A DNA stretch of 64,000 nucleotides from Ruminococcus sp. (GTDB taxonomy: Bacteria; Bacillota; Clostridia; Oscillospirales; Acutalibacteraceae). The stretch's first letter is position 1. Every line of letters begins with the position of its first letter. Below are positions 7,764-55,409 of the stretch, in pieces. The translations under genes and the position numbers were made by a program. The stretch lies in NCBI GenBank assembly GCA_004556705.1, contig SFGA01000002.1:12938-76937 (forward strand). The letters run 5' to 3'. Under the pieces are notes generated by a model, which ran no database searches, had not been told where the DNA came from, and saw only the letters and a program-made list of their open reading frames with translations.

Positions 7764-8180
7764 TTAGTGATGTTCGCCATTCTTCGGGTTAACAATATCT
7801 CTCCAGTCAAGGTCGCCCCTTGCAAGGCTGTGTATAAGTGCCTCCGCAGTAGCGATATTAGTAGCGACGGGTATATTGTGAACGTCGCAGAGCCTTAAAA
7901 GATTAGCTTCATTCGGCTCATGTGGCTTAGGATTAAGGGGATCTCTGAATATAAGCAAAAGGTCGATTTCGTTGCAAGCAATCCTCGAACCGATTTGCTG
8001 ATCGCCGCCTTGAGAGCCGCTTAAAAACTGTGTAATTTTAAGACCCGTTGCCTCAGAGACAAGCTTACCCGTAGTTCCCGTAGCGCAAAGATTGTGCTTT
8101 GAGAGTATTCCGCAATATGCAATGCAAAACTGCGTCATAAGTTCTTTTTTCTCATCGTGTGCTATAAGAGCTATGTTCAT
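7764..8180 (-). CDS. mgsA: Methylglyoxal synthase
   Basis: [12 protein letters not shown]...ATGTTG...GGDQQIG...IDLLIFFRDPL-like block...[29 protein letters not shown]-17-TATTAT promoter and AGGGAGGAAG RBS lie upstream at 8181-8256. Confidence 0.95.
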
Positions 8181-52218: not shown

Positions 52219-52247
52219 AAGGGCACGGTTTTTCCGTGTCCTTTTTT
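52219..52247 (+). terminator. Rho-independent terminator of galU
   Basis: GGGCACGG-TTTTT-CCGTGTCC (one G-U pair) followed by TTTTTT. Confidence 0.8.
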
Positions 52248-52313: not shown

Positions 52314-52342
52314 TTGATTTTGCAGACGTATATCACTATAAT
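52314..52342 (+). promoter_or_regulatory. Sigma-A-type promoter
   Basis: TTGATT (52314-52319), a 17-nt spacer, then TATAAT (52337-52342), upstream of the 84-aa ORF. Confidence 0.55.
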
Positions 52343-52377
52343 CAGAGCTAGAAAATGTTACGAAAGGACACAATTAA

Positions 52378-52632
52378 ATGACACTGAATGAACTTGCAAA
52401 AGCTTACAGAGAAGACGAAAAGAGGCTTGAAAAGCAAATCGCAGCATTGCGAGAAAGCTCAAAAAATTACACGGGCGCACAGAAGCATAACGCAAACAGA
52501 CATCTGCTCTGTCTTTACGAAATGAAAAGAGAAGTGGCCAATACGGCAAAAACGCTCGAAAACTATTACACAGAAAAGTCGCAAACAAGGCTTTATCATA
52601 AAAAAAGCGACATTTTACACCCGCAATCTTAA
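52378..52632 (+). CDS. Small helical/coiled-coil protein, unknown function
   Basis: 84 aa. AAAGGA RBS and its own promoter. Charged heptad-like sequence LNELAKAYREDEKRLEKQIAALRESS...EMKREVANTAKTLENYY. No family recognised. Confidence 0.5.
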   Translation: MTLNELAKAYREDEKRLEKQIAALRESSKNYTGAQKHNANRHLLCLYEMKREVANTAKTLENYYTEKSQTRLYHKKSDILHPQS

Positions 52633-52640
52633 TTTTTCTA

Positions 52641-52669
52641 TTGATAATTTGATAACAAAAATGTATAAT
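52641..52669 (+). promoter_or_regulatory. Near-consensus sigma-A promoter with extended -10 for the NifU-like/GGGtGRT pair
   Basis: TTGATA (52641-52646), a 17-nt spacer ending in TGT, then TATAAT (52664-52669). It leaves a leader of about 115 nt before ATG 52790. Confidence 0.65.
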
Positions 52670-52789
52670 ACTATCGTACATTTCCATAAAGCAGAGGAAT
52701 ACGGTATGTATATGCAAAAATGCTTTACGGCAAGCTGCTTATTGTATTGCGGCTCTTTATGGTAAAACAGGAAAGGAGTTCATGTTACA

Positions 52790-53485
52790 ATGATTAACTA
52801 TTCACATGAAGTTGAAACAATGTGCTGTGTTGCTAAAGGACCGCACCATGATCCCGCTCCCATTCCCGAAGAAGGCAAATGGGTAGCTGCAAAGCAGATT
52901 ACAGACATTTCAGGTTACACACACGGTATTGGCTGGTGTGCACCTCAGCAGGGCTGCTGCAAGCTCTCGCTTAACGTTAAAAACGGAATTATCGAGGAGG
53001 CTCTTGTTGAGACTGTAGGTTGCTCGGGTATGACTCACTCGGCGGCAATGGCAGCGGAAATTCTTCCGGGCAAGACTGTTCTTGAGGCTCTTAATACAGA
53101 CCTTGTTTGTGATGCTATCAATACAGCAATGAGAGAGTTGTTCTTGCAGATTGTTTACGGTCGTACACAGTCTGCTTTCTCTGATGACGGACTTGTTATC
53201 GGCGCAGGTATGGAGGATCTCGGTAAGGGCTTCCGTTCAATGGTCGGCACAATGTACGGCACAAAGGCAAAGGGCGTTCGTTACCTTGAAATGACAGAGG
53301 GCTATTGTACAAGAATGGCTCTTGATGAGAATGACGAGGTTATCGGCTATGAGTTCGTTTCACTCGGCAAGATGACAGATTTCATCAAGCAGGGTATGGA
53401 GCCCAACGAAGCATATAAGAAATCAATCGGAACTTACGGCAGATTTGATGAGGCCGCTAAGTATATCGATCCGAGAAAAGAATAA
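52790..53485 (+). CDS. NifU/IscU-like Fe-S scaffold homolog (partner of the GGGtGRT protein)
   Basis: Three IscU-position cysteines in GIGWCAPQQGCCKLSL, VGCSGMTHSAAMAAEIL.GKT..EA and DLVCDAINTA. An extra ~100-aa C-terminal extension. Tightly linked to the next gene by an 18-nt gap containing GAGGGAGGA. Confidence 0.7.
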   Translation: MINYSHEVETMCCVAKGPHHDPAPIPEEGKWVAAKQITDISGYTHGIGWCAPQQGCCKLSLNVKNGIIEEALVETVGCSGMTHSAAMAAEILPGKTVLEALNTDLVCDAINTAMRELFLQIVYGRTQSAFSDDGLVIGAGMEDLGKGFRSMVGTMYGTKAKGVRYLEMTEGYCTRMALDENDEVIGYEFVSLGKMTDFIKQGMEPNEAYKKSIGTYGRFDEAAKYIDPRKE

Positions 53486-53503
53486 GAGAGGGAGGATTTA
53501 ACA

Positions 53504-54505
53504 ATGGCACAGTTTGAAGGTTACGAAAGACGTGAGGCTAAAATCCTCGCAACTCTTAAAGAATATGGCATTTCGTCAATCGACGAGTGTAAAGAAATTT
53601 GCGCAGAAAAAGGCATTGATCCCTATACAATCGTACAGGAAACACAGCCTATCTGCTTTGAGAACGCTAAATGGGCTTACACCGTAGGTGCTGCTATCGC
53701 TATTAAGTCAGGCTGCACAAAGGCTGCTGATGCGGCTGCTGCTATCGGTATCGGCCTCCAGAGCTTCTGCATCCCCGGTTCTGTTGCTGAAAACCGTAAG
53801 GTTGGTCTCGGTCACGGAAACCTCGGTAAGATGCTTCTTTCCGAAGAGACAGAGTGCTTCTGCTTCCTTGCAGGACACGAGAGCTTTGCAGCTGCTGAGG
53901 GCGCAATCAAAATCGCTCTTAACGCAAACAAAGTTCGTCAGAAGAACCTCAGAGTTATCTTGAACGGTCTCGGTAAGGACGCTGCTTACATTATTTCAAG
54001 AATCAACGGCTTCACATATTGTGAAACAGAGTTTGACCCCTACTCGGAAACCGTTAAGGTTACAGAGCAGAGAGCATTCTCAAACGGTCCGAGAGCCGAT
54101 GTTAAGTGCTACGGCGCTGACAACGTTCCCGAGGGCGTTGCTATCATGAAGCTTGAAAATGTCGGCGTTTCAATCACAGGTAACTCAACTAACCCGACAA
54201 GATTCCAGCATCCCGTTGCAGGCACATACAAAAAGTGGTGCGTTGAAAACGGCGTTAATTATTTCTCGGTTGCTTCGGGCGGCGGCACAGGCCGTACACT
54301 TCACCCCGACAACATGGCGGCAGGCCCCTCTTCTTACGGCATGACCGACACAATGGGAAGAATGCACTCGGACGCTCAGTTCGCAGGCTCATCTTCTGTT
54401 CCGGCTCACGTTGAAATGATGGGACTTATCGGTATGGGTAACAACCCGATGGTTGGTGCTACCGTTGCAGTTGCAGTTGCAGTCGAAGAAGCAATGAAAG
54501 CATAA
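53504..54505 (+). CDS. GGGtGRT family protein (function unknown)
   Basis: 333 aa. It contains the name-giving motif in FSVASGGGTGRTLHPDNMAAGPSSYGMTD, a Gly/Ala-rich C-terminus, and several conserved-looking Cys. The family name is recalled from NCBI annotation and not verified by search. Confidence 0.7.
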   Translation: MAQFEGYERREAKILATLKEYGISSIDECKEICAEKGIDPYTIVQETQPICFENAKWAYTVGAAIAIKSGCTKAADAAAAIGIGLQSFCIPGSVAENRKVGLGHGNLGKMLLSEETECFCFLAGHESFAAAEGAIKIALNANKVRQKNLRVILNGLGKDAAYIISRINGFTYCETEFDPYSETVKVTEQRAFSNGPRADVKCYGADNVPEGVAIMKLENVGVSITGNSTNPTRFQHPVAGTYKKWCVENGVNYFSVASGGGTGRTLHPDNMAAGPSSYGMTDTMGRMHSDAQFAGSSSVPAHVEMMGLIGMGNNPMVGATVAVAVAVEEAMKA

Positions 54506-54522
54506 TCTCATAGCAATAATTT

Positions 54523-54555
54523 AAGGCAGGTAAGAAATTACCTGCCTTGTTTTTA
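54523..54555. terminator. Terminator shared by convergent units
   Basis: Perfect 11-bp stem AAGGCAGGTAA / TTACCTGCCTT with a GAAA loop, then GTTTTTATTT on the plus strand. The minus-strand gene stops at 54553. Confidence 0.8.
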
Positions 54556-54771
54556 TTTGCTTTTTCTTTTTGTTGTGTCCTTACGCTGTCGGGCTTGCTC
54601 GACTTCAGACAGCCCTTGCGATATTGCAGGGAAAGTATTATCGGTGTCGGCGGTCGGCTGAATTTCATAAGTGCCGTACTTGTTCAACATTCCGTAAACC
54701 GATTTCGGATTGCCCTGTATATTTGCCGTGCTCTCGTCAAGCCTTTTATGCGAAGTGCTCTTCTTTTTCAT
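54553..54771 (-). CDS. Small hydrophilic protein with basic termini, unknown function
   Basis: 72 aa, GGGTGAT RBS. The sequence runs MKKKSTSHKR...NKYGTYEIQPTADTDNTFPAI...RQRKDTTKRKSK. No family recognised. Confidence 0.45.
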   Translation of the reverse strand: MKKKSTSHKRLDESTANIQGNPKSVYGMLNKYGTYEIQPTADTDNTFPAISQGLSEVEQARQRKDTTKRKSK

Positions 54772-54821: not shown

Positions 54822-55409
54822 TTATTTCTTGCCTTTTAACAGCGGCTTGATTTTTGAAAAATATGCGTTGCCGTCCGTTTCGCCGAATTTTTTAACAAGG
54901 GCGTTATGTATACCCTCTTTTGTCTTACAGGTCATTGTAATTTTCGCTATCGTCTTTGAAATGGTGCGGTCGCCGATTATTTCAAGAACGCTGTTTTCGA
55001 TTTTTTCGATTTCCTCTAAATTGTTACCCTCGCAAATCGCACGAATTTGCTTTACAGAGTAACCACGGTTGCACCAATATTGGCAAACAAACGAAAAACC
55101 TTGGTCTTTGGACACAATATAATAAGTGGTTTCCTTATCGTTATACTTGCCCATCAAATAGCCTATATAGGTGTCAAGCTGAGCGTCGAGAGCGTCATGG
55201 AAAATCTTATCCGTGCCGGTGATTTTCACATTTGCTTCCTTGAAAACGGTTTTTGCTGCGGACTTTTGGATTTTCTCAACTGCTTTGATGTCGATTTTCG
55301 GTGCGTTTGTGCTGAAAAACACGACGACAACGTCGGTATCCAAAAGCTTTTCGATACCGTTTAAGCCTGCAACGGATGTGTTTTCATAGTCAATAACATA
55401 AATGCTCAT
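54822..55409 (-). CDS. NYN/PIN-like nuclease-fold protein with C-terminal helical (possibly OST-HTH/LOTUS-like) domain
   Basis: N-terminal IYVIDYEN...VVVVFFS...DALDAQL...YYIVSKDQGF fits the NYN/PIN acidic-residue pattern. The C-terminal ~60 aa (IHNALVKKFGETDGNAYFSKIKPLL) is helical. RBS is GAGGTGG. Confidence 0.5.
   Translation of the reverse strand: MSIYVIDYENTSVAGLNGIEKLLDTDVVVVFFSTNAPKIDIKAVEKIQKSAAKTVFKEANVKITGTDKIFHDALDAQLDTYIGYLMGKYNDKETTYYIVSKDQGFSFVCQYWCNRGYSVKQIRAICEGNNLEEIEKIENSVLEIIGDRTISKTIAKITMTCKTKEGIHNALVKKFGETDGNAYFSKIKPLLKGKK

Follow-up and report, generated by a model that had tools for sequence, protein, structure and literature searches.

A paired IscU-like and GGGtGRT protein as a candidate iron–sulfur replacement for enolase in gut and rumen anaerobes

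The operon and its two products

We analyzed a two-gene operon (52641–54559, plus strand) in a 64,000-nucleotide stretch of DNA from a Ruminococcus sp. genome (assembly GCA_004556705.1, contig SFGA01000002.1, positions 12,938 to 76,937; hereafter 'the window', to which coordinates refer unless another contig is named). The first gene of the operon (gene 1) encodes a protein with an IscU-like core, and the second (gene 2) encodes a member of the GGGtGRT protein family. Because the source genome (coded G000; completeness 98.65%) has no enolase gene, we consider this pair the best candidate for an enolase replacement. The operon comprises the following features:

52641–52669, plus strand: sigma-70-type promoter, TTGATA (52641–52646), 17 nucleotides, TATAAT (52664–52669), with 11 of 12 positions matched
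52676–52789, plus strand: 5′ leader of ~114 nucleotides, with a possible closing helix (52684–52691 with 52755–52762)
52790–53485, plus strand: gene 1, 231 amino acids, with an IscU-fold core (~42–122) preceded by a conserved N-terminal extension and followed by a C-terminal domain rich in beta structure (~150–231)
53486–53503, plus strand: intergenic spacer of 18 nucleotides, with a GGGAGG ribosome-binding site ahead of the second ATG
53504–54505, plus strand: gene 2, 333 amino acids, GGGtGRT protein (PF14057), with the motif at residues 259–265 and a Gly/Ala-rich C-terminal helix
54522–54559 (hairpin 54522–54549), plus strand: intrinsic terminator, a hairpin of 11 perfect pairs and one G-T pair with a GAAA loop, followed by a T-run

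The promoter was the top-scoring of six promoter-like sites in the region (shuffled sequences yielded 4.0 ± 2.2). An initial annotation of this DNA, made from the sequence alone, had written it as TTGATA-17-TGT-TATAAT; the promoter itself held up, and the 'TGT' proved to be part of the 17-nucleotide spacer rather than a separate element. Because the TG abuts the –10 box, the promoter is not a canonical TGn extended –10 promoter. The GGGAGG site within the short spacer indicates that translation of the two genes is coupled. We therefore agree with the initial annotation that a strong promoter, a leader (~115 nucleotides in its estimate, ~114 in ours), two coupled genes and an 11-base-pair terminator form one self-contained unit.

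The product of gene 1 resembles the IscU/NifU scaffolds without scoring as one of them. Its match to NifU_N (PF01592; E = 4e-4, 20.8 bits) fell under the gathering score of 22, and its scores against the NCBIfam models TIGR03419, TIGR01999 and TIGR01994 were 25.2, 21.4 and 19.6 bits, compared with cut-offs of 187.9, 192.4 and 92.5 bits, respectively. IscU/NifU scaffolds nonetheless headed its sequence matches in the PDB. An AlphaFold model (mean predicted local distance difference test score, pLDDT, 76.6) had an IscU-type core, a low-confidence linker at residues 131–150, and a beta-rich C-terminal domain. In a Foldseek search with this model, the top matches were to IscU and SufU and covered the N-terminal half, with probabilities of 0.93–1.0 and template-modeling (TM) scores of 0.48–0.59 on the target, at E-values of only 1e-3 to 1e-1. 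The C-terminal domain had no Foldseek match.

Across 41 sequences from four phyla, residues H20, H45, C57, C78, H83, C107 and D108 of gene 1 were invariant and C50 nearly so. Cysteine C78, in the sequence GCSG, aligned exactly with the central cysteine of IscU, whereas C50, C57 and C107 lay near the positions of IscU cysteines but were offset from them. Thus, of the three IscU-position cysteines that the initial annotation had credited to gene 1, the central one stands and the others, conserved as they are, appear to occupy non-canonical positions. The segment that carries LPPVK-HCS in IscU is shortened, and the stretch that carries the conserved Asp of IscU could not be aligned. LPPVK is the chaperone-binding motif of IscU, and gene 1 lacks it because only ~6 residues separate its 'EAL' from its last cysteine, as opposed to ~20 in IscU. 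The ~100-residue C-terminal extension noted in the initial annotation is present, and we found in addition a conserved N-terminal extension of ~40 residues. Compared with the known scaffolds (PF01592, TIGR01999 and TIGR03419; PDB entries 1wfz, 3lvl and 4eb5), gene 1 is therefore alike in the fold of residues ~42–122 and in the central GC(S/G) cysteine. It differs in scoring below the family cut-offs, in its displaced first and third cysteines, in its shortened LPPVK-HCS segment, in its added conserved N- and C-terminal parts and in always being coupled to a GGGtGRT gene, with no cysteine desulfurase seen in the flanking open reading frames (ORFs).

Gene 2 could be assigned firmly. It aligned with PF14057 from end to end (profile positions 1–327 of 327; E = 9e-193; 639.9 bits against a cut-off of 27), so that profile searches bore out the initial annotation in full for gene 2 and only through sub-threshold NifU matches for gene 1. 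The motif SVASGGGTGRTLHPDNMAAGP is present, with GGGTGRT at residues 259–265, of which G259–G261, G263, R264 and T265 were invariant in our alignments, and the Gly/Ala-rich C-terminal helix was likewise confirmed. The predicted structure (pLDDT 81.5; predicted TM score 0.84) consists of a helical N-terminal domain and an alpha/beta domain, with a motif-containing loop (residues 260–298) at which the pLDDT fell below 50, as would be expected of a loop that becomes ordered only against a partner or ligand. No relative of gene 2 was found in the PDB, either by sequence or by fold (best E = 0.05; TM ≤ 0.27). No cysteine is invariant across the family. Arg, Lys, His, Asp and Glu, by contrast, are invariant at many positions, and these would suit an anionic and possibly phosphorylated substrate. 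Neither gene 1 nor gene 2 matched enolase in Pfam or NCBIfam, which places the pair outside the enolase family.

Pairing, enolase loss and glycolytic gene order

In an exhaustive search of a library of 1.8 billion representatives, nearly the whole GGGtGRT family fell into a single cluster at 50% identity; outside it were fragments and one genuine outlier at 49% identity. Because the family is essentially this single cluster, there were no remote members to provide functional hints. Gene 2 is carried by at least 589 species of the genome collection, and it retains 75–80% identity across Bacillota, Bacteroidota (Prevotella and Alistipes), Verrucomicrobiota (Akkermansia and Kiritimatiellae) and Syntrophorhabdus (the frameshifted sequence P0362 was left out of these comparisons); the gene 2 studied here is 99% identical to that of a 'Candidatus Fimenecus sp.' metagenome-assembled genome (MAG). 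At every informative locus, gene 2 was directly preceded by a full-length gene 1 in the same orientation (25 out of 25 in one survey and 76 out of 76 in another, 101 in total). These loci spanned four phyla, Bacillota, Bacteroidota, Verrucomicrobiota and Desulfobacterota, and included those of Prevotella, Alistipes, Akkermansia, Kiritimatiellae and Syntrophorhabdus, in agreement with the obligate pairing that the initial annotation had suspected. The literature that we searched assigned no function or biochemistry to the pair, again as the initial annotation had supposed for the GGGtGRT family. Our pair is thus a further member of a catalogued, uncharacterized gene pair and is not new in itself.

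Several genomes of the Prevotella-containing family also had a second, short frame (56–69 amino acids) that matched only positions ~270–326 of the GGGtGRT profile and lay 10–30 kb from the full gene (G447:C1:3299538-3299708, G491:C4:41630-41797, G543:C1:743447-743611 and G548:C14:33887-34036). One copy contained an in-frame TAG. These frames may be remnants or stand-alone mini-genes.

The codon usage of the pair is that of a highly expressed enzyme of central metabolism. When 1585 ORFs of G000 were ranked self-consistently by codon adaptation, gene 2 came 15th and gene 1 26th, in the company of EF-Tu (1st), pyruvate phosphate dikinase (PPDK, 2nd), GAPDH (3rd), a PEPCK-like protein (5th) and PGK (23rd); gpmI came 78th and pyk 586th. 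The ranks of PPDK, PEPCK and pyk (on contigs C54, C75 and C78) suggest a metabolism of phosphoenolpyruvate (PEP) centered on PPDK and PEPCK. The ranking thus marks PEP as a hub in heavy use, although G000 has no recognizable route to it from 2-phosphoglycerate (2-PG).

The step missing from that route is enolase. Searches of G000 with hidden Markov models (HMMs) of Enolase_C and Enolase_N (PF00113 and PF03952) returned no match, although all 14 control genomes matched, and a tblastn search with a real enolase gave a best E-value of 1.2; on these results we rejected the possibility of a hidden or divergent enolase. Sampling 24 further genomes of the genus likewise uncovered no enolase; 22 of them carried the pair, as does G000 (the two that did not were 79% and 91% complete). 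The glycolytic operon of G000, pgk-tpi-gpmI (contig C50:11008-14611), ends without eno, and gap lies elsewhere (contig C64). Pyruvate kinase, PPDK and PEPCK are all retained. So too was the phosphoglycerate mutase iPGM, the gpmI product, in all five of the other high-quality enolase-less genomes that we tested, which represent five families. Downstream of gpmI in G000, a gap of 380 nucleotides is followed by a 147-amino-acid ORF that is not eno.

We then compared the distribution of the pair with that of enolase more broadly. In a phylum sample of 401 genomes, of which 27 had the pair and 16 lacked enolase, the pair was present in 9 of the 16 enolase-less genomes versus 18 of the 385 enolase-positive ones. 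The nine enolase-less carriers came from at least eight families and included all five of the enolase-less genomes that were at least 98% complete; the seven genomes lacking both were 85–97% complete, and three of them had enolase-bearing congeners. Among 16 other families of the same order as G000, seven had only the pair, six had both, three had only enolase, and none had neither. In a second phylum we sampled 151 genomes from the family to which a Prevotella MAG belongs and found 57 genomes with both, 48 with only the pair, 36 with only enolase and 10 with neither. Of these 10, one had an enolase fragment, one had a gene 1 cut by a contig end, and one had a 62-amino-acid remnant of gene 1. 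With these taken into account, 48–50 genomes have only the pair, 36–37 only enolase and seven neither.

The enolases that coexist with the pair scored lower than others. Within the order, those of the pair carriers G426, G428, G432, G433, G434 and G438 matched Enolase_C with E-values of 1e-101 to 1e-122, compared with the clearly stronger ~1e-133 for those of the pair-less genomes G425, G430 and G190. The lower-scoring enolases may be under relaxed constraint or may belong to another lineage.

Gene order provided a further link to lower glycolysis. In the seven genomes of one family (f38), gpmI, gene 1 and gene 2 were colinear. One of these genomes (G224) had the Pfam-verified order gap-pgk-tpi-gpmI-gene 1-gene 2-pyk, with no terminator-like site from pgk to pyk and a 13-base-pair terminator after pyk. 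The slot between gpmI and pyk is the place of enolase in the canonical Firmicute operon. The enolase-less genome G030 had the order gap-pgk-tpi-gpmI-gene 1-gene 2. In the latter genome (locus L133, 9628–10875), a 415-amino-acid ORF without a Pfam match directly follows gene 2 on the same strand.

Orthologs of the pair have surfaced in studies of iron and of the gut and rumen proteome. The Bacteroides thetaiotaomicron genes BT0173 (GGGtGRT) and BT0174 ('NifU'), adjacent as judged by locus tags alone, and Clostridium pasteurianum F502_05012 belong to the same two families, with 75–80% identity between phyla, and these orthologs are iron-responsive and abundant. Expression of BT0173-74 dropped 11- to 12.8-fold under iron depletion, whereas the BT4570-72 cluster, to which eno belongs, is given as rising 2.0- to 7.7-fold, with weak statistical support (P = 0.144; PMC10434189). 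F502_05012 responds to iron supply, and gut and rumen proteomes contain the GGGtGRT protein in abundance (PMC11204068; PMC7035244). A screen for loss of the glucose-dependent inhibition of Cur in B. thetaiotaomicron returned pfkA, an M16 peptidase locus and BT0173-4, and transposon mutants of these three loci had no growth defect on glucose (bioRxiv 10.64898/2026.04.10.717545). B. thetaiotaomicron has enolase, whereas G000 does not; in the latter the pair would not be redundant but essential.

The leader and the flanking genes

We considered the leader as a possible riboswitch and rejected it: it had no Rfam match at E ≤ 1, its folding was no stronger than that of shuffled sequence (z = –0.87), and it was not conserved beyond the same species. 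Two mutually compensating changes separate the possible closing helix, CCATAAAG with CTTTATGG, from its counterpart in a conspecific MAG (L028; CCGTAAAG with CTTTACGG). The ~65-nucleotide segment that this helix encloses is missing from the leaders of more distant relatives. A three-codon mini-ORF (ATG at 52782 to TGA at 52793) overlaps the start codon of gene 1.

The neighbors of the unit are galU, an 84-amino-acid ORF, a PIN7-domain gene and an rlmH-like block. The initial annotation had placed the unit between galU and a minus-strand housekeeping block; the unit does not adjoin galU directly, as the galU terminator (52219–52243) is followed first by the 84-amino-acid ORF (52378–52632), a charged frame with its own promoter matching 10 of 12 positions (region 52314–52632) and with no significant family match. 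Downstream, a 195-amino-acid PIN7-domain protein (PF18475, E = 4e-18; 54822–55409, minus strand) converges on the terminator of the unit. Among the flanking ORFs, only two of which were run through Pfam, we recognized no Fe–S assembly gene or cysteine desulfurase.

A candidate 2-phosphoglycerate dehydratase and its alternatives

Taken together, the comparative evidence points to what would be a very highly expressed enzyme of lower glycolysis, in which the IscU-like subunit would hold an iron–sulfur (Fe–S) cluster, because enolase is absent from the genome and genus, because enolase loss is associated with the pair in two phyla, and because the pair can occupy the position between gpmI and pyk. 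Phyletic distribution, place in the operon and codon bias give indirect indications of the candidate activity, conversion of 2-PG to PEP. We assign a probability of about one half to the reading in which the pair is an oxygen-labile, two-subunit Fe–S 2-PG dehydratase, an abundant cytoplasmic enzyme of lower glycolysis. For the wider proposal, that a non-homologous, oxygen-sensitive Fe–S 'enolase' of this kind explains glycolysis in enolase-less Butyrivibrio, many Prevotella/Segatella, the Fimenecus-like genus and other gut and rumen anaerobes, we would offer slightly less than even odds.

The chemistry has precedents. In the Fe–S dehydratases aconitase, class I fumarase and L-serine dehydratase, the leaving hydroxyl binds the cysteine-free iron of a [4Fe-4S] cluster whose other three irons are held by cysteines. 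2-PG can be likened to a serine whose C2 bears a phosphate ester instead of the amino group, and because of this resemblance the same dehydratase chemistry would give PEP. In our proposal the IscU-like subunit would bind a cluster stably, with C78 and two or three of the cysteines C50, C57 and C107 as ligands, so that one iron could remain available for the C3 hydroxyl, on the model of aconitase or the Fe–S L-serine dehydratase. The GGGtGRT subunit would use its glycine-rich loop and invariant Arg, Lys and His residues to bind the phosphate and carboxylate and to abstract the C2 proton. The shortened chaperone-motif segment of gene 1 would fit a permanently bound cluster. Unlike the known Fe–S hydro-lyases, to which we detected no homology, the pair would carry its cluster on a separate IscU-like subunit, an arrangement that to our knowledge no hydro-lyase has. 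Compared with enolase itself (phosphopyruvate hydratase; PF03952 and PF00113), the pair would catalyze the same reaction, is found in enolase's operon slot and has a phyletic pattern largely complementary to enolase loss, yet it has no sequence or fold similarity to enolase, consists of two subunits and would presumably depend on Fe–S rather than on Mg.

In G000 the pair would stand in for the missing enolase, and in genomes that have both it would be an iron-dependent isozyme used when iron is replete. Escherichia coli sets a precedent for such an isozyme pair, in that fumarases A and B depend on Fe–S and fumarase C is iron-free. The same logic, an oxygen-labile Fe–S form when iron is plentiful and an iron-free analogue under limitation, runs in the same direction as the regulation in B. 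thetaiotaomicron, and an isozyme role would match both the opposite responses of BT0173-74 and the eno-containing cluster and the absence of a growth defect in the transposon mutants.

Several observations weigh against the dehydratase. The evidence for it is indirect rather than biochemical. The association in the phylum sample (odds ratio 0.038, p = 6e-8) is uncorrected for phylogeny, most carriers of the pair also possess enolase, and seven genomes of the Prevotella-containing family, all with PGK and possibly incomplete, apparently have neither. A glycolytic gene lies near the pair at only 8 of ~105 loci, seven of the eight in one family, and among 80 named loci a glycolytic neighbor was found only at L070 (gpmI, 2 kb downstream). 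Neither Pfam nor Foldseek revealed a likeness to a known hydro-lyase (aconitase, class I fumarase, L-serine dehydratase or IlvD/Edd). Control of the pair by fluoride riboswitches (RF01734) was not borne out in two samples: these had matches in 4 of 50 pair-carrying genomes, with the pair at none of the four loci, and none lay beside the pair at the 30 loci fetched from 150 genomes of the class. G000 also has a possible bypass: it carries methylglyoxal synthase (mgsA; TIGR00160, 162 bits; window 7818–8180, minus strand, equivalent to G000:C81:20755-21117), which catalyzes the opening step of a bypass that published work suggests for bacteria lacking enolase, together with an L-serine dehydratase (SDH_alpha), so that pyruvate could be reached and converted to PEP by PPDK. 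Finally, the one published assay on the enolase-less Butyrivibrio proteoclasticus B316, which may or may not carry the pair, detected very little enolase activity in its extracts (PMC2914790). The methods passage of the same paper describes a coupled pyruvate kinase/lactate dehydrogenase spectrophotometric assay and, within that passage, mentions no anaerobic conditions (PMC2914790); the low activity reported there could be explained by the oxygen lability that we propose for the cluster.

These same observations lend some weight to a different reaction. The pair could be a central-metabolic Fe–S enzyme or flux sensor, with the enolase step skirted through methylglyoxal or serine to pyruvate and from there by PPDK to PEP, a possibility that we consider unlikely; examples, with the same low likelihood, would be some other dehydratase or an isomerase whose substrate is a phosphorylated three-carbon acid, and a regulator that links glycolysis to redox state or iron. 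The presence of mgsA and SDH_alpha in G000, the ranking of PPDK second and PEPCK fifth in codon bias (which fits PEP made from pyruvate), the near-absence of enolase activity from B316 extracts, the seven Prevotella-family genomes with neither gene, and a B. thetaiotaomicron transposon phenotype that amounts to a modest two-fold effect on signaling would all be consistent with it. It leaves unexplained, however, both the exact placement of the pair between gpmI and pyk and the retention of iPGM in every enolase-less genome tested; we know of no other bacterial fate for 2-PG, the iPGM product. Moreover, the methylglyoxal route has no ATP yield and is reported to be incomplete in B316 (PMC11026938).

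The resemblance of gene 1 to IscU raises the further possibility that the pair is a system for assembling, storing, carrying or repairing Fe–S or other metal clusters, composed of an IscU-like scaffold and its GGGtGRT partner and taking no catalytic part in carbon metabolism. The IscU fold with its conserved cysteines and histidines, expression that rises with iron supply, and an abundance befitting a storage or carrier protein all speak for such a role, which we nevertheless think improbable, because every IscU/NifU model scored under its cut-off, the LPPVK segment is shortened and the Asp stretch of IscU cannot be aligned, and no desulfurase stands out in the flanking ORFs (two of them run through Pfam). 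An identity of 75–80% between phyla, and the dozens of polar positions at which gene 2 does not vary, are more suggestive of an enzyme active site, and a scaffold would explain neither the association with enolase loss nor the gpmI-pair-pyk operon. For similar reasons, namely the sub-threshold NifU scores and the missing scaffold hallmarks, the 'metallocluster or cofactor-handling enzyme' of the initial annotation is not supported as worded. Least probable of all, in our estimation, is that the link to enolase loss is an ecological coincidence, both being traits of host-associated strict anaerobes and the pair itself serving some unrelated purpose, for example defense against oxidative or nitrosative stress. 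The pair is confined to anaerobes and often appears alongside rubrerythrin in proteomes, and statistics that take no account of phylogeny would be vulnerable to such an effect. Ecology would not, however, account for the glycolytic operon context, for a codon bias equal to that of glycolytic enzymes, or for the pattern within one order, in 16 other families of which the pair-less genomes all have enolase and the enolase-less genomes all have the pair.

Enolase is regarded as a universal core enzyme, and its absence from rumen and gut bacteria has been an acknowledged gap since 2010, restated in reviews of 2023–2024 (PMC2914790; PMC11187502; PMC11026938). The pair is a concrete two-gene candidate that makes the missing-enolase problem testable at the bench. 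The locus described here is of particular value in this regard, as a whole genus is enolase-less and carries a pair with the codon bias of a core glycolytic enzyme. Even if the dehydratase reading is wrong, few bacterial proteins that lack a function would be as well conserved or as highly expressed as this pair. If it is right, the pair would constitute a new class of enzyme for which the PDB offers no relative by fold. Flux models and metabolic reconstructions would then change for a large share of the gut and rumen microbiota, the iron dependence of glycolysis in these organisms would be explained, and aerobic assays would be shown to have missed a core activity.

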